Below, in pieces: positions 53,509-60,684 of a stretch of DNA of 64,000 bases (position 1 is the stretch's first letter; every line of letters starts with the position of its first letter). The notes below the pieces were generated by a model. That model searched no databases. It was not told where the DNA came from and worked only from the letters and a program-made list of their open reading frames with translations. The translations under genes and the position numbers were made by a program. The stretch lies in assembly GCF_988243305.1 (NCBI RefSeq), contig NZ_OZ547136.1; one strand, given 5' to 3'.

Positions 53509-53962
53509 TAACTACACTCGATGTCCTTAGAATAAAAGACAACGCAAACCGTACTTTATCAATTTTCATTTAAAGTATGAACTGGATATCTTTATTCATA
53601 AGAACTATTCATCAACAGCCTATAGAGACGGTTATGTAAAACCACTCATTAGCCTCAAAACAAAGACAAATTTCCAGATTTATTACTTAATCAATGAATA
53701 ATAAGCTTAAAAAACAATCTATTATCCTAAAGAAAAAATTAACAAACATCAATTCAATATTAAAAAAATAATATATGATAATTTCTTAATGATTTAAGTA
53801 TCATACAACTAACACTTTAATTAAATTTGATTTTTTGTATCGATAATTGTGAACTTATCATATATGGAGAGCTATTTTGAACATGAGGTGTTACGTGGAT
53901 ATATTGCTTAATACGAGTACTGCTAATATAAAAACTTGAGAAAGAGATAACGGGTTATATGG

Positions 53963-54418
53963 TGGTTTATCCCCGCTGGCGCGGGGAACTCCGTCAGTGT
54001 GCCAGTTGCTACTGTTTCCCATACGGTTTATCCCCGCTGACGCGGGGAACTCATCAGTGATATCCAACATTGCGGAGCTAAACGCGGTTTATCCCCGCTG
54101 GCGCGGGGAACTCTATAAATGTGCCATATACGGCGTTTGTTGCCTCGGTTTATCCCCGCTGGCGCGGGGAACTCCTCCCGGTGATGCGGGTTATGTGGCC
54201 TGCCGCCGGTTTATCCCCGCTGGCGCGGGGAACTCTTCGCCGCGTCAACAATTCGGACCTGTAAATCCGGTTTATCCCCGCTGGCGCGGGGAACTCATCC
54301 GGCGAACGCGCTACAGAGTACAGTTCACCGGTTTATCCCCGCTGGCGCGGGGAACTCGGAAACCGCCCCGGCGGTGGTTAGCTGTTTGCCGGTTTATCCC
54401 CGCTGGCGCGGGGAACTC
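53963..54418 (-). CRISPR. Second type I-E CRISPR array: 8 repeats, 7 spacers
   Basis: Same 29-bp repeat at 61-bp period (53963, 54024, 54085, 54146, 54207, 54268, 54329, 54390); AT-rich leader-like sequence beginning TCTCTAAA at the high-coordinate end, as in array 1. Confidence 0.93.
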
Positions 54419-54750
54419 TCTAAACATAACCTATTATTAATTAATAATTTTTTAAGCCAGTCACAATCTACCAACTTTATAGTATCACACAAACAACACA
54501 TCCATTATGTTAAAGAGCACTTAATCCATTGATTGAAAAGCTAAATATTTAAAGTAATCCTATACCGACTAAAATCTACCAAACTTTACCGCAATAATTT
54601 TCACTCCAGCGAAAAATTAATGCCGCAGAATTTGTAGAGAATGCTAATGATTAGCCCTGGATGGGTAAAATGGAGGAGTTTTCAGAGGCGACAAACAATA
54701 TAAATGAGTAGAAATCTTTACAGGTTCCACCCATTTATAACGCTTATAAA
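54419..54750 (-). promoter_or_regulatory. Leader of the second CRISPR array
   Basis: AT-rich non-coding region adjoining the first repeat on the transcription-proximal side; starts with the same TCTCTAAA junction seen at the array-1 leader. Confidence 0.55.
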
Positions 54751-54757
54751 TGTTTAA

Positions 54758-55429
54758 TCAGGCAATATTTAGATATTTATGTGTTTGCATCGACAAACGC
54801 CAATTACGAGCAATGCAGGTTTCAATGCACAATCGTGTGGCATCATCCTTTTGGCTAATCGGCTGCAGTGCAATGACTCGCGGTTTATCATCGGTCAGCG
54901 TCGCCAAAAGTTCATCCAGTGCTTCAATATCACGTACGCGTCCCACTGGATGCTTGATTTCGTTGGCTCGCTCCAGTGCCTGTGACAACACTTCATAGCC
55001 GCCGCGCATGTTCAGCTTTGGCGATACGGTAACCCAGGTATTCGGTGTGCAGCGTACCTCATGAGTACCACTGGTTTCGATCTGGCAGCTAAAACCGTTC
55101 TTTTCGAGCAGGTCAGTCAGTGGCAGCAAATCATGAATGCAAGGCTCACCACCCGTAATCACCACATGCCGCGCGGTGTATCCCTGGCGACCAATGACAG
55201 CCAGCAAGTCTTCACTGCTCGCCGCCCCCCACTTATCACTCTCTTTGGTCTTCGCCAGAATGCTGAAAAGGGAGACTTCCCGATCCTCAAGCTTTTCCCA
55301 GGTGTGTTTGGTGTCGCACCAGGCACAGCCAACCGGGCATCCCTGTAAACGAATAAAAATGGCGGGGACGCCGGTAAAGTAACCCTCACCTTGCAGGGTC
55401 TGGAACATCTCGTTAATCGGGTACTGCAT
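54758..55429 (-). CDS. queE: 7-carboxy-7-deazaguanine synthase QueE (radical SAM)
   Basis: 223-aa ORF MQYPINEMFQTLQGEGYFTGVPAIFIRLQGCPVGCAWCDTKHTW... Confidence 0.93.
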   Translation of the reverse strand: MQYPINEMFQTLQGEGYFTGVPAIFIRLQGCPVGCAWCDTKHTWEKLEDREVSLFSILAKTKESDKWGAASSEDLLAVIGRQGYTARHVVITGGEPCIHDLLPLTDLLEKNGFSCQIETSGTHEVRCTPNTWVTVSPKLNMRGGYEVLSQALERANEIKHPVGRVRDIEALDELLATLTDDKPRVIALQPISQKDDATRLCIETCIARNWRLSMQTHKYLNIA

Positions 55430-55601: not shown

Positions 55602-56204
55602 ATGCTCAGAATATTCATCGTAATTATATTTATTTTCAATTTATCAGGCTGTGGATATAACGATATTCAAACCTATGATGAGCAGGTTAACGCCTCCTGG
55701 TCTGAGGTATTGAATCAATATCAACGTCGCGCCGATCTTATTCCTAATCTTGTCGCCAGCATTAAAGGTTATTCCAGCCATGAACGAGATGTACTGGAAG
55801 CCGTAACATTGGCTCGTAGCCAGGCTAATCGCGCCAGTAGCGATCTTCAGCAAACTCCGGGCGATGAACAAAAATTACAAGCCTGGCAACAGGCTCAAGC
55901 GCAGGTGACTCGCACTCTCGGTCAGTTAACGATAATTAGTGAGCGTTACCCTGAGTTAAAATCTCAGGAACTCTATCAAAATTTAATGGTACAGCTTGAA
56001 GGAAGTGAAAATCGGATTGCCGTTGCGCGAGGAAGATATATTAAAGCCATTGAACAATATAATGTCACTATCCGCAAATTCCCCGCTGTGTTAACCGCAA
56101 AGGTCATGGATTACACACCAAAGAAAAATTATTTGCCGGATGATGTCGCCGCAGTAAGTAAAGCCCCAACAATAGATTTTAGCCAGAATGCTAATGCTCA
56201 TTAA
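55602..56204 (+). CDS. LemA-family lipoprotein
   Basis: 200-aa ORF with lipoprotein signal/lipobox (FNLSGCG) and a LemA-like helical body; AT-rich. Confidence 0.8.
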   Translation: MLRIFIVIIFIFNLSGCGYNDIQTYDEQVNASWSEVLNQYQRRADLIPNLVASIKGYSSHERDVLEAVTLARSQANRASSDLQQTPGDEQKLQAWQQAQAQVTRTLGQLTIISERYPELKSQELYQNLMVQLEGSENRIAVARGRYIKAIEQYNVTIRKFPAVLTAKVMDYTPKKNYLPDDVAAVSKAPTIDFSQNANAH

Positions 56205-56217
56205 GCGGGGAAGTTCT

Positions 56218-57111
56218 ATGCGAAATTTTATCTTCCTTATGGCTTTCTTCTGTTCATCTGTGTTTGCCACACAAATTCCAGTACCTGAATCACCCAAGTA
56301 TGTGAATGACTTAACCGGCACATTAACAAACAGCGAAGTAAACACCCTGACCAACCAGATTAAAGCCCTGACGCAAAAAAACTACGCACAGTTGGTCGTG
56401 TTAGTGGTTGAAACAACTGGCGATGAAACCATCGAGCAGTACGCAACGCGGGTATTCGATAGCTGGAAACCGGGTGATAAAGACCACGATGATGGCGTTC
56501 TACTGTTAGTCGCCTGGCAGGATCATACCGTGCGTATTGAAATCGGTTACGGACTGGAAGGTATTATTACGGATGCACAGTCCGGGAAAATTATTCGCAA
56601 CAGTATTATTCCGGCATTTAAAAAAGGGGACCTGGCTGGTGGTTTGCAAAAGGGAATCAGCGATATTGAAAGTCGTCTGACGGGGAATAATTTAGCAACG
56701 ATAACACCGACCGATCACCCTTTGCCTTTTAGCGGTTGGTGGGCTTTGTTAGTCTGGGCGATAGTACTGACGTTTATTTCTGCCAGAGGATATATCAAAA
56801 CGCTGGGAGTAATTTGCTTCGCAGCTATTGTACTGGCCTTTGTTTTACCTATAGCAGGCTTCAGCGGAAGCTGGGGAGTACTCGCAACATTACTCTGCTT
56901 CGCCACACCGTTCCTGGCTGTCGCCATCGCTTTTACCCCCTTCGGCAAAAAGGTTCGGGATTCGATGCGTGATGCCAACCAGCCATCACGCCATACAAGA
57001 AGCAATTCTTCCTCCCACTATTCATCATCGTCATCCTCTTCATTCAACAATGACAATTTCAGCGGTGGTGGCGGTTCATCTGGTGGCGGTGGCGCTTCCG
57101 GGCGCTGGTAA
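56218..57111 (+). CDS. TPM-domain (YgcG-like) membrane protein, paralog 1
   Basis: Signal peptide MRNFIFLMAFFCSSVFA, TPM-like block (VNDLTGTLT...LVVLVVETTGDETIEQYATRVFDSWKPGDKDHDDGVLLLVAWQDHTVRIEIGYGLEG), two or three TM helices, Gly/Ser-rich tail ending GGGGSSGGGGASGRW. Confidence 0.8.
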   Translation: MRNFIFLMAFFCSSVFATQIPVPESPKYVNDLTGTLTNSEVNTLTNQIKALTQKNYAQLVVLVVETTGDETIEQYATRVFDSWKPGDKDHDDGVLLLVAWQDHTVRIEIGYGLEGIITDAQSGKIIRNSIIPAFKKGDLAGGLQKGISDIESRLTGNNLATITPTDHPLPFSGWWALLVWAIVLTFISARGYIKTLGVICFAAIVLAFVLPIAGFSGSWGVLATLLCFATPFLAVAIAFTPFGKKVRDSMRDANQPSRHTRSNSSSHYSSSSSSSFNNDNFSGGGGSSGGGGASGRW

Positions 57112-57125
57112 CAAAAGGAATTGAT

Positions 57126-58274
57126 ATGCGTATTTTTCTCTTACTTCTGATGCTATGCGGTTTTCAGGTATTCGCTGAACAATTGCCTTCAGTAACTGAC
57201 TTAACCGGGACATTAACGACAGAAGAACAAACTGCTTTAACTCAACAATTACAGACTCTCGAGCAGCAAAACCACTTCCAGGTGGCCGTGTTGGTCACGC
57301 CGACCACAGGGGGCAAAAACATTAAACTTGCAGCCTCGCAGAGATACGGGGTATATCACTGGAAACCCGTTGGAGAGAAGCGATATGGCGAAGGTATCTT
57401 AATTCTCGTCGTATGGCCGGAAGGGCTGGCGTCAATGAAGATTGGACATGGACTGGAACAGATGTTGCCGCCGGAACAAGCTTCGCAAATTGTTCGTTAC
57501 CATATGCAGCCAGAATTCGAAAAAAACAATCTCTTTGCTGGATTAACGGGCGGAATTGAAAGCATCGCACAGTTTACCCATATCAAAGCGAACCTTAGCC
57601 CTTTGGATGCTTTAGCCAATCATCTGTTTGCTAATCCGCAACGTTCGCTGCCTTGTCTTGCCTGGACACTGCTGATGATCGTTGCCATCGTTGTCCTCTG
57701 GCGATTTGCCAGCCGCCCAGGGCGTGGCATATGGATGATATCGATGATTACCCCTATGGTCTGGTTTTTCTCCTTTCAGGACGATGTCATCATTCGGCGG
57801 GTATCGGTCGTTTGTTTTAGTTTATTGTTAGCAACAACCTGCAAGCAGCGTCTCGCGGTAGTTTTTAATATGTGCCGCGTATTTCCTATGATGCTGACCC
57901 CAAAAAATAAAAACGCTAAAGTGAAAAAACAAAAGAAGACTCCGCAGGTTCGTGAATCAGGACGAAATTCATTGTTTGTCGTGATGCTGATAATTATTGT
58001 GGGATGGTGCCTGGTGTTCGCCAGTAATAAAGATATTGCATTCATCTCAACAATTATTGGGTTAATTGATCATTTTATCGGCCCAATAACCATTGCTGGC
58101 ATCGTTCTGCTGATCATTGTGGCCAAATTTACTGGCAATCTTAAGCTGGGATCAGGAGAAAAAAGCAACAGGAAAACGGGGAATCGTAATGCTCATTCTC
58201 GCTCTTCGTCGAGAAATTCTTTCCGCGGTGGTGGCGGTTCTTCAGGAGGCGGCGGTTCATCCGGCCGTTGGTGA
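57126..58274 (+). CDS. TPM-domain membrane protein, paralog 2 (diverged, extended membrane region)
   Basis: Signal peptide MRIFLLLLMLCGFQVFA, diverged TPM block, extra TM segments and a lysine-rich loop, tail ending GGGGSSGGGGSSGRW. Confidence 0.75.
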   Translation: MRIFLLLLMLCGFQVFAEQLPSVTDLTGTLTTEEQTALTQQLQTLEQQNHFQVAVLVTPTTGGKNIKLAASQRYGVYHWKPVGEKRYGEGILILVVWPEGLASMKIGHGLEQMLPPEQASQIVRYHMQPEFEKNNLFAGLTGGIESIAQFTHIKANLSPLDALANHLFANPQRSLPCLAWTLLMIVAIVVLWRFASRPGRGIWMISMITPMVWFFSFQDDVIIRRVSVVCFSLLLATTCKQRLAVVFNMCRVFPMMLTPKNKNAKVKKQKKTPQVRESGRNSLFVVMLIIIVGWCLVFASNKDIAFISTIIGLIDHFIGPITIAGIVLLIIVAKFTGNLKLGSGEKSNRKTGNRNAHSRSSSRNSFRGGGGSSGGGGSSGRW

Positions 58275-58279
58275 TCGTA

Positions 58280-59185
58280 ATGCGCTTAATCTTTATTCTA
58301 CTTGCTTTGTGGAGCCTTCCCGGGCTTGCCCAGCAAATTGCTGTGCCGGAGCTGCGCCAACAAGTGACTGATATTACTGGTACGTTAAGCACGTCTGAAC
58401 AGCAATCGCTAACGCAGCAGCTGCAGGATATTACACATAAAACACGGGCGCAGGTCGCTGTATTAGTAGTGCCGTCCACCGGAGACGATTCCATTGAACA
58501 ATATGCAGCACGCGTTTTTGATAGCTGGAAACTGGGAGATAAGCAGAGAAACGATGGTATTTTACTTCTGGTTGCCTGGGAGGAGCATGCTGTTCGTATT
58601 GAGGTTGGCTACGGGCTGGAAGGGGTGGTTACCGACCTGCAAGCGGCGAAGATTATCAGAGATATTTTGATCCCTGCCTTCAAAAGTGATGACCTGATGG
58701 GTGGATTAACACTGGCAAGCGAAAATATCGGCGCGCTTCTGTTGAATGGTGAATTATCGGAAGACAGGGGGGATTATTACAGTATCAATCCCTTTATTCC
58801 ATTATCGCTTGCTGTAATTATATTGCTGGCGGTACTTTCATATTTTATTGTTTTTACCGATCCGTCGAATTTACCCTGGATCACTCTCACTGGCGCCATT
58901 TACGGGATGGTATTCCTCTATGTTGCCGAGCCAGGACCATGGACCAATTTAATCGTTGCCTGCGGTATGCTCACGCCTTTTGCCATCGTACCACTGCTTA
59001 TTTTTTGGCTTATCGTTAATAAAAAGCTACGCGCTAAATACAAGAAGCTCGGTAAAGAAAGAGCTTCAAGAAAAGGTTCTTCTTCATCCTCTTCCGGTGG
59101 CGGCTCAAGTGGCGGAGGCTCAGGCGGTGGCTTTAGCGGCGGGGGCGGTTCTTCTGGCGGTGGCGGCGCGTCCGGTCGCTGGTAA
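58280..59185 (+). CDS. ygcG: TPM-domain membrane protein, paralog 3 (most likely the ygcG ortholog by position next to eno)
   Basis: Signal peptide MRLIFILLALWSLPGLA, TPM block highly similar to paralog 1, TM helices, long Ser/Gly tail ending GGGGSSGGGGASGRW; symbol tentative. Confidence 0.7.
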   Translation: MRLIFILLALWSLPGLAQQIAVPELRQQVTDITGTLSTSEQQSLTQQLQDITHKTRAQVAVLVVPSTGDDSIEQYAARVFDSWKLGDKQRNDGILLLVAWEEHAVRIEVGYGLEGVVTDLQAAKIIRDILIPAFKSDDLMGGLTLASENIGALLLNGELSEDRGDYYSINPFIPLSLAVIILLAVLSYFIVFTDPSNLPWITLTGAIYGMVFLYVAEPGPWTNLIVACGMLTPFAIVPLLIFWLIVNKKLRAKYKKLGKERASRKGSSSSSSGGGSSGGGSGGGFSGGGGSSGGGGASGRW

Positions 59186-59217
59186 CTCAACCATAAAAAA
59201 TGCCAGCCCGAAGGCTG

Positions 59218-60643
59218 TAATGCCGATCAGTTAAGGATCAGTTGACCGATCCAGTGGCTGTGTAAGAATCCGGAAACGCTCACTTGTTTCCGGATTTTTT
59301 TATGCACATTGGACAGGCTCTTGATCTGGTATCCCGTTACGATTCTCTGCGTAACCCACTGACTTCTCTGGGGGATTACCTCGACCCCGAACTCATCTCT
59401 CGTTGCCTTGCCGAATCAGGTACTGTAACGCTACGCAAGCGCCGTCTTCCCCTCGAAATGATGGTCTGGTGTATTGTTGGCATGGCGCTTGAGCGTAAAG
59501 AACCTCTTCACCAGATTGTGAATCGCCTGGACATCATGCTGCCGGGCAATCGCCCCTTCGTTGCCCCCAGTGCCGTTATTCAGGCCCGCCAGCGCCTGGG
59601 AAGTGAGGCTGTCCGCCGCGTGTTCACGAAAACAGCGCAGCTCTGGCATAACGCCACGCCGCATCCGCACTGGTGCGGCCTGACCCTGCTGGCCATCGAT
59701 GGTGTGTTCTGGCGCACACCGGATACACCAGAGAACGATGCAGCCTTCCCCCGCCAGACACATGCCGGGAACCCGGCGCTCTACCCGCAGGTCAAAATGG
59801 TCTGCCAGATGGAACTGACCAGCCATCTGCTGACGGCTGCAGCCTTCGGCACGATGAAGAACAGCGAAAATGAGCTTGCTGAGCAACTTATAGAACAAAC
59901 CGGCGATAACACTCTGACGTTAATGGATAAAGGTTATTACTCACTGGGACTGTTAAATGCCTGGAGCCTGGCGGGAGAACACCGCCACTGGATGATACCT
60001 CTCAGAAAGGGAGCGCAATATGAAGAGATCAGAAAACTGGGTAAAGGCGATCATCTGGTGAAGCTGAAAACCAGCCCGCAGGCACGAAAAAAGTGGCCGG
60101 GACTGGGAAATGAAGTGACAGCCCGCCTGCTGACCGTGACGCGCAAAGGAAAAGTCTGCCATCTGCTGACGTCGATGACGGACGCCATGCGCTTCCCCGG
60201 AGGAGAAATGGCGGATCTGTACAGTCATCGCTGGGAAATCGAACTGGGATACAGGGAGATAAAACAGACGATGCAACTGAGCAGGCTGACGCTGAGAAGT
60301 AAAAAACCGGAGCTTGTGGAGCAAGAGCTGTGGGGTGTCTTACTGGCTTATAATCTGGTGAGATATCAGATGATTAAAATGGCGGAACATCTGAAAGGTT
60401 ACTGGCCGAATCAACTGAGTTTCTCAGAATCATGTGGAATGGTGATGAGAATGCTGATGACATTGCAGGGCGCTTCACCGGGACGTATACCGGAGCTGAT
60501 GCGCGATCTTGCAAGTATGGGACAACTTGTGAAATTACCGACAAGAAGGGAAAGGGCCTTCCCGAGAGTGGTAAAGGAGAGGCCCTGGAAATACCCCACA
60601 GCCCCGAAAAAGAGCCAGTCAGTTGCTTAACTGACTGGCATTA
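59218..60643 (+). mobile_element. IS4 insertion sequence (1426 bp) with imperfect terminal inverted repeats and a flanking direct repeat
   Basis: Left end TAATGCCGATCAGTTAAGGATCAG, right end reverse complement TAATGCCAGTCAGTTAAGCAACTG; CAGCCCGAAGGCTG present immediately outside both ends (59204-59217 and 60644-60657); length equals the canonical IS4 length. Confidence 0.9.
59302..60630 (+). CDS. insG: IS4 transposase
   Basis: 442 aa from [40 protein letters not shown]..., recognised as the IS4 transposase. Confidence 0.9.
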
Positions 60644-60684
60644 CAGCCCGAAGGCTGGCATTTTTAAATCAGATAAAGTCAGAC

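Follow-up and report, generated by a model that had tools for sequence, protein, structure and literature searches.

The window analysed here is a stretch of 64,000 nucleotides (64 kb) from contig NZ_OZ547136.1 (RefSeq assembly GCF_988243305.1). It is part of an Escherichia coli chromosome, and a megablast search found a 100% identical region in strain FDAARGOS_1288. Our subject is the glycine- and serine-rich C-terminal tail shared by three consecutive TPM-domain proteins encoded in it. The genes follow one another in the order queE (54758-55429, minus strand), lemA, the three TPM genes, a copy of IS4, and eno. The lemA gene (55602-56204, plus strand), first of the operon, encodes a LemA-family protein (Pfam PF04011, E = 4.6e-48; homolog PDB 2ETD, E = 7.7e-32; RefSeq annotation of the identical strain). 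TPM paralog 1 (56218-57111, 297 amino acids) starts 13 nt downstream of lemA on the same strand, and paralog 2 (57126-58274, 382 amino acids) starts 14 nt after paralog 1. Paralog 3 (58271-59185) starts in RefSeq at a GTG that overlaps the stop codon of paralog 2 by 4 nt (GTGA), with an alternative ATG start at 58280; paralogs 2 and 3 are also on the plus strand. Because of this tight packing, lemA and the three TPM genes look like one operon.

At the protein level, Pfam PF04536 (TPM_phosphatase) matched paralogs 1, 2, and 3 with 137.6, 77.0, and 129.6 bits (E = 2.9e-40, 1.7e-21, and 8.9e-38), against a gathering cut-off of 22.1. Each paralog has a classical signal peptide, with a positive n-region, a hydrophobic core, and a cleavage site between VFA and TQ, VFA and EQ, or GLA and QQ. 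All three carry hydrophobic helices downstream of the TPM domain, which is the architecture of what we call TPM-A –the tailed, membrane-anchored YgcG-type TPM proteins– as distinct from the soluble, tail-less TPM-B. Paralog 1 reads as a signal peptide, a predicted periplasmic TPM domain, three membrane helices, a basic juxtamembrane helix, a Ser-rich linker, and the tail. Paralog 2 is the most divergent copy; hydropathy analysis and the sequence itself gave it a longer membrane region, with about five helices by eye, and a Lys-rich loop that is predicted to be cytoplasmic.

The original prediction was that the three paralogs end in near-identical Gly/Ser tails terminating in GRW, and their C-termini (NFSGGGGSSGGGGASGRW, SFRGGGGSSGGGGSSGRW, and GGGSSGGGSGGGFSGGGGSSGGGGASGRW) are exactly so, with the shared ending F-[S/R]-GGGG-SS-GGGG-[A/S]-SGRW. 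On the plus strand, the tails are encoded at 57058-57108 in paralog 1 (FSGGGGSSGGGGASGRW; stop codon 57109-57111), at 58221-58271 in paralog 2 (FRGGGGSSGGGGSSGRW; stop codon 58272-58274), and at 59132-59182 in paralog 3 (FSGGGGSSGGGGASGRW; stop codon 59183-59185), where a Gly/Ser linker extension (59075-59131, plus strand) precedes the tail. The DNA near-repeats that it located are therefore right to within two bases (57058-57111, 58221-58274, and 59132-59185 with stop codons). It also held that the tail was kept while the TPM and membrane regions diverged, and the numbers bear this out: any two paralogs share 88-100% of their last 16 residues, against 40-60% of the TPM domain and 22-26% of the membrane and linker region. 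In DNA, they agree at 77-83% of the last 48 nt.

The tail is a family-wide TPM signature and not a local feature of three E. coli genes. We searched 1.84 billion cluster representatives using the TPM domain of paralog 1 only as the query, so that the tail was unable to bias the ranking, and examined the best 150 matches. A Gly-rich tail of this type ended 118 of them, with a terminal W in 115; the other 32 were mostly short or frameshifted in appearance. The logo from the 118 representatives is [F/Y/W]-S-G-G-G-G-x-[S/F]-G-G-G-G-A-S-G-x-W-COOH. Its terminal W reaches 97%, the GGGG at -8 to -5 is present in 90-100% (99-100% for G at -5 to -7), A at -4 in 88%, and S at -3 in 97%. All three paralogs match the family motif GGGG-x-[S/F]-GGGG-[A/S]-S-G-x-W-COOH.

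To look at specificity from the other side, a DNA-pattern scan for GGGG-[A/S]-S-G-x-W-stop was run on one genome per species for about 100,000 species, and returned at least 120 loci. All 122 pattern matches listed are the ends of real open reading frames (ORFs). They come from Proteobacteria, Bacteroidota, Verrucomicrobiota, Planctomycetota, Firmicutes, Spirochaetes, Nitrospinota, Candidate Phyla Radiation (CPR) bacteria, and a Nanoarchaeota metagenome-assembled genome (MAG). A TPM domain was found in 113 of the 115 judgeable ORFs among the matches listed (seven more ORFs leave the end of their locus). Thus, when the glycine tail was looked for in other protein families, the exact form proved essentially TPM-specific. 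The two complete exceptions among the matches listed, L009 (149 amino acids) and L119 (52 amino acids), consist of a membrane helix and the tail with no TPM domain; these mini-proteins suggest that helix plus tail is a module able to exist alone. L009 lies at 647-1114 on the minus strand of its locus, in a Kiritimatiellales MAG, and the ORF of L119 ends near 1005.

No non-TPM family appeared among the exact-motif matches listed in the genome scan, although looser tails would escape the exact motif. DUF2207 proteins beside LemA may be glycine-tailed as well. When the tail peptide alone (46 amino acids) was used as a homology query, it retrieved E. coli fragments only, its low complexity and the database size making such a query useless. 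No Pfam or NCBIfam model covers the motif, and our literature search found no paper describing it.

Among the pattern matches listed, 69 tailed genes had at least 1.2 kb on both sides, and in these fully flanked loci lemA was present in 58, always on the same strand and upstream in 54. A TPM-B gene was found in 53 of the 69. To collect TPM-B genes, we used a hidden Markov model (HMM) built from TPM-A sequences, which found 42, and a TPM-B HMM, which found 44 more. TPM-B proteins have about 145-170 residues, neither signal peptide nor membrane helix, and a conserved C-terminal motif of their own, HFP-x6-N-E-L-P-D-x-P (e.g., L038:1481-1930 and L037:3669-4229). The usual module is lemA + TPM-A + TPM-B. 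A Pfam survey of the 148 flanking ORFs of the listed loci showed no conserved neighbor besides lemA and further TPM genes, and neither a protease gene nor a sortase-like gene was a conserved neighbor among them. These data show that the motif is essentially restricted to TPM proteins and co-occurs with an adjacent lemA, and usually with TPM-B.

Three side observations belong here. Proteobacterial TPM-B proteins share a conserved basic N-terminal segment, RHLxxxxWxxRRxFP. MerR-family regulators were the only recurring non-TPM family (4 of the 148 flanking ORFs of listed loci, L003-L122). Finally, LemA together with tailed TPM genes was seen at L057:2285-7868, L024, and L046, on contigs that have been assigned to a Nanoarchaeota MAG, with two tailed copies, and to the CPR bacteria Parcubacteria and Nomurabacteria.

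The E. coli locus is a variant of the module, with three tailed TPM-A genes and no TPM-B in the window. The TPM-B HMM matched only the three TPM-A genes in the 64 kb, and weakly. A TPM-B profile search aimed at E. coli copies elsewhere returned environmental sequences only among its best 120 matches, which do not bear on E. coli itself. The same arrangement recurs in a second enterobacterial assembly, GCA_000302695.1 (L126:3310-7118), which encodes a lipoprotein LemA and three tailed TPM-A proteins (FRGGGGSSGGGGASGRW, YNGGGGSSGGGGASGRW, and FSGDGGSSGGGGASDRW), with no TPM-B in the locus. There, the block sits at a different chromosomal site, beside pmbA, darP, and cybC, so that lemA and its three TPM-A genes seem to move as a unit.

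At the DNA level, the pattern of substitutions is that of a constrained peptide. In comparisons between paralogs, the proportion of nonsynonymous differences (pN) in the tail was 0-0.06 and that of synonymous differences (pS) 0.55-0.61; in the TPM domain, pN was 0.26-0.39 and pS 0.71-0.80. We also simulated independent codon choice with the codon usage of 35 long ORFs of the window and compared codons for the same amino acid. The tails differed at 7 of 15, 9 of 17, and 9 of 15 such codons, where 10.0, 11.5, and 10.0 were expected (P = 0.07, 0.12, and 0.37). Synonymous differences are thus near the expectation for independent choice, and the similarity of the tail DNA is no more than amino-acid constraint by itself would give. 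Selection on a shared C-terminal element and gene conversion between copies had been offered as the two possible causes of tail conservation: the low pN, together with a motif kept in homologs from many phyla, speaks for the first, and the nucleotide-level alignment proposed to separate them gave no gene-conversion signal among the three copies. These results show that strong purifying selection acts on the tail peptide and that gene conversion has not made the copies uniform.

Regarding topology, the N-terminus of the lemA product (MLRIFIVIIFIFNLSG followed by C) is a lipoprotein signal, with the lipobox L-S-G-C read directly in the sequence, and LemA is predicted to be periplasmic. Among the 118 tailed homologs, 101 have signal-peptide-like N-termini, which would place their TPM domains in the periplasm. 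Those inspected by eye have one or three membrane helices. In the 118 homologs, the mean net charge is +1.5 in the 15 residues after the last membrane helix vs. -0.7 before the first; by the positive-inside rule, this charge points to a cytoplasmic linker and tail. Signal peptides, hydrophobic helices, and charge distribution taken together are consistent with a cytoplasmic tail, and with a TPM domain and a LemA that would be both periplasmic. The region from the last helix to the tip has 25-298 residues (median 53) and a variable composition. The tandem-TPM proteins found have both domains before the membrane helices, and no fusion of a cytoplasmic TPM with the tail was seen among them.

The AlphaFold2 model of paralog 1 (96-sequence alignment) had a mean predicted local distance difference test (pLDDT) score of 80, with the TPM domain above 90, helices at 174-189, 193-212, and 218-239, and a linker at 254-280 below 50. 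The tail formed a beta strand at S288-R296, and the last seven residues reached a pLDDT of 92. Since the only other strands of the model are in the TPM sheet, the tail must be added there to the edge of that sheet. Foldseek confirmed the TPM alpha/beta fold of the model (PDB 5ANP, TM-score 0.89, E = 1.4e-11; also 7TBR, 2KW7, and 3PTJ). Given the predicted topology, docking of the tail onto its own TPM domain may be a modelling artefact. We also modelled a TPM-B fused to the linker and tail, predicted to be cytoplasmic, of the adjacent TPM-A, from 33 paired sequences, and the tip was again a strand, with a lower pLDDT of 79 over the three final residues and 53 over the preceding ten. Both models hint that the tip may bind by beta-strand addition and that the TPM fold could be its receptor. 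The tail has the anatomy of a docking peptide: a disordered tether (pLDDT < 50), an invariant tip, and W as the last residue in 97% of homologs.

Our best explanation is that the three tails are copies of the TPM-A signature C-terminus, under selection, cytoplasmic, and ending in what might be a docking or assembly tip; taken as a whole, we give it an even chance of being right. A disordered tether rich in Gly, Ser, and Phe and 25 or more residues long would suspend the tail in the cytoplasm, and the invariant tip may serve as a tethered docking or assembly peptide that binds its partner by adding a beta strand, this last step being the most tentative. In canonical three-gene modules, TPM-B would be the only cytoplasmic component, and hence the obvious candidate receptor. 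With three tailed copies and without TPM-B, the E. coli locus would have to offer the tip a partner of another kind, either the paralogs' own tails or a housekeeping factor.

Several points weigh against this explanation. Among the 148 flanking ORFs of the listed loci, the search for a conserved cytoplasmic partner found none apart from TPM genes. A simple hydropathy count of helices gave mixed odd and even numbers, and the cytoplasmic placement of the tail comes from charge bias, inspection by eye, and the AlphaFold helices, not from experiment. The docking that AlphaFold predicted with confidence is onto the protein's own periplasmic TPM domain, which is impossible in vivo if the topology is right, and docking to TPM-B in the fusion model is weaker (pLDDT 53-79). 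Moreover, E. coli and the second enterobacterium, whose loci lack TPM-B, keep the tail in full, as do the 16 of 69 fully flanked listed loci without TPM-B. TPM-B therefore cannot be the sole reason for its conservation, which calls for another partner or for self-association. A bolder form of the docking proposal makes the GGGGASGxW tip a universal beta-strand docking peptide, by which a periplasmic LemA/TPM-A pair would hold or regulate cytoplasmic TPM-B, or an enterobacterial housekeeping partner; we regard it as improbable. If true, the widespread LemA-TPM module would signal or assemble across the membrane through a defined peptide-receptor interface.

Among other explanations, the Gly/aromatic tail could mediate self-association or binding to the membrane surface, in the manner of low-complexity, aromatic-rich kinked segments, and so bring TPM-A proteins together in clusters, the E. 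coli paralogs among them. Such a role would suit the (G3-5 F/W/S)n pattern, with aromatics at regular intervals, that is typical of the cytoplasmic region outside enterobacteria; the E. coli linkers, however, are Ser-rich with few aromatics. The same tip kept in all three paralogs of E. coli and of the second enterobacterium, with no TPM-B in the locus, also fits, as do the beta propensity of the tip in both AlphaFold models and the mini-proteins of membrane helix and tail (L009 and L119). The case is nevertheless purely inferential and tail-tail contacts are beyond the reach of monomer models, so we consider it unlikely on present evidence.

A role in proteolysis seems to us about equally doubtful. 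The FtsH protease can engage membrane proteins through a free cytoplasmic tail, and glycine tracts make AAA+ proteases slip, so that the tail might set or protect the lifetime of the protein. The predicted architecture –a membrane protein that ends in a disordered cytoplasmic stretch of 25 residues or more– would fit, and the distant TPM relatives Psb32 and TLP18.3 act in photosystem II repair, an FtsH-dependent process. However, slipperiness requires glycine content and not an invariant A-S-G-x-W tip, and the flanking ORFs of the listed loci include no conserved protease neighbor.

The original prediction had also raised a flexible tether, and here the linker and the tip part ways. The linker behaves as a tether would, being variable in length and composition and low in pLDDT, and Gly/Ser insertions distinguish paralog 3 and its alleles. 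To extend this to the tip, and to see in the tail a low-complexity spacer or a relic of slipping repeats whose exact sequence plays no part, is contradicted by the data: the last 9-17 residues keep a fixed register with near-maximal information content across phyla, and a mere spacer would not need an invariant A-S-G-x-W end. Thus, the tether idea suits the variable linker and fails for the tip, and we judge a plain spacer distinctly unlikely.

A sorting, secretion, or processing signal, of the sortase, exosortase, or rhombosortase type, was suggested by the position of a conserved motif at the extreme C-terminus. In LPXTG, PEP-CTERM, GlyGly-CTERM, and PGF-CTERM signals, the motif comes first, then the membrane helix, then basic residues. 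Here the order is reversed, with helix, basic residues, linker, and finally the motif in the last 17 residues. Besides, the listed matches occur alike in Gram-negative, Gram-positive, and CPR bacteria and in an archaeal MAG, and no conserved sortase-like gene flanks them. A sorting tag is thus contradicted by the data and very unlikely.

Gene conversion or concerted evolution, keeping the tail-coding segments alike without peptide selection, is likewise contradicted, largely refuted, and the least probable of all: tail DNA is indeed 77-83% identical vs. 35-61% elsewhere in the genes, synonymous differences fall slightly under random expectation (7 vs. 10.0 and 9 vs. 11.5), and paralog 3 is 94% identical to the K-12-type ygcG allele in the tail, but the DNA changes are nearly all synonymous (8-9 vs. 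0-2 non-synonymous), the shortfall is not significant (P = 0.07-0.37), hundreds of unrelated genomes, in which these copies cannot convert one another, keep the peptide, and the likeness of paralog 3 to K-12 ygcG extends into the common downstream flank, as allelic homology does and paralog conversion does not.

Comparison with known systems places the tailed paralogs within a familiar group. YgcG of E. coli K-12 (b2778), annotated as "YgcG family protein" or "TPM domain-containing protein", occupies the same position as paralog 3, between queE and eno, and shares with it a signal peptide, a TPM domain, a hydrophobic region, and the identical ending GGFSGGGGSSGGGGASGRW. Overall, however, K-12-type YgcG and paralog 3 are 45% identical, and in K-12 the gene stands with the small gene yqcG only, without lemA or the two extra paralogs. 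The canonical lemA/TPM-A/TPM-B module (COG1704 + COG1512) resembles the window in having a same-strand lemA directly upstream of a tailed membrane TPM; the window differs in lacking TPM-B, in its triplicated TPM-A, and in a LemA of the lipoprotein type in place of one with a membrane-helix anchor.

A crystallised parallel is BA41 of Bizionia argentinensis (PDB 5ANP). Its deposited sequence of 277 amino acids has a TPM domain, a hydrophobic segment, and the tail GGGFGGGGFGGGGASGGW, ending in GGGGFGGGGASGGW, whereas the crystal structure models about 140-145 residues, the TPM domain only, and leaves the tail outside. Its neighbor BA42 (PDB 4OA3 and 2LT2) is a stand-alone TPM domain and corresponds to TPM-B. 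Bacteroidota modules have one tailed and one tail-less TPM, in contrast to the three tailed and no tail-less proteins of the E. coli locus. More distant are Psb32, TLP18.3, and MOLO-1, the source of the TPM domain name, which share the fold of the paralog 1 model (Foldseek 3PTJ, 3PVH, and 8C7I, E 1e-5 to 1e-6) with only 14-15% sequence identity; they are not known to carry the glycine tail. A functional analogy may be drawn with PDZ ligands, the C-terminal tip of the single-stranded DNA-binding protein SSB, and the HbYX motif of proteasome activators, which likewise combine a disordered linker with a short invariant aromatic tip and its free carboxylate. The TPM-A tip has no sequence relationship to them, and its beta-strand binding is predicted from a model.

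LemA and the TPM proteins of the YgcG type count among the most widespread envelope proteins of bacteria without known function. The genes of the window are themselves ordinary, being typical, annotated members of a known, functionally uncharacterised family. Few short C-terminal motifs that we have met are conserved as strictly as the TPM-A tail, which is found from E. coli to CPR bacteria and in an archaeal MAG. It offers a small and precise handle on the LemA-TPM module, for example through the tip peptide GGGGSSGGGGASGRW, or the BA41 tail with BA42, which has been assigned by nuclear magnetic resonance (NMR). In genome annotation, it cleanly separates membrane TPM-A from soluble TPM-B.

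E. coli strains differ at this locus, which is in part decaying. The block of lemA and three TPM genes was present in 1102 of 5426 complete genomes; about 80% carry only yqcG and the divergent ygcG. Paralog 1 of strain 143 has a premature stop (LAT*LCF; L124:1119-2030). In paralog 2, position -2 of the tail varies, from SSGRW in the window to SSVRW in strain 143 and SSDRW in strain GN03551 (L125:2027-3175), and the third gene of GN03551 is a mosaic, 78% identical to K-12 YgcG. The boundary between the two alleles (lemA + three TPM genes vs. yqcG + ygcG) falls exactly at the first tail codon, as seen when window positions 59132-59230 are set against L001:2640-2740: paralog 3 and K-12-type ygcG are near-identical (94%) from there to about 45 nt past the stop and diverged upstream. 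The start of this identity is the edge of an allelic replacement and not of a conversion between paralogs.

Residues 234-290 of paralog 3 (ORF 58280-59182) gave a sub-threshold match to Pfam PF25184, a YxzE-like putative bacteriocin (E = 3.8e-4, 21.9 bits vs. a cut-off of 40). The match spans the last membrane helix and the Gly-rich linker, is similarly weak in the homologs of L126 and L127, and is probably a composition effect.

Other features were observed around the operon. A sigma-S peak has been reported in the K-12 queE-ygcG intergenic region by chromatin immunoprecipitation sequencing (PMC4447067). Between ygcE and queE lies an array of clustered regularly interspaced short palindromic repeats (CRISPR; 53841-54418) with type I-E-like repeats, and the ORF at 53997-54440 is a translation of these repeats (recurring ...VYPRWRGEL...). 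Downstream of paralog 3, a complete IS4 (59218-60643, 1426 bp; transposase 59284-60630) is inserted in the hairpin of the bidirectional terminator common to paralog 3/ygcG and eno, with the 14-nt direct repeat CAGCCCGAAGGCTG on both sides (59204-59217 and 60644-60657). The insertion takes away the plus-strand T-run after the hairpin, and strain 143 has the locus without IS4.

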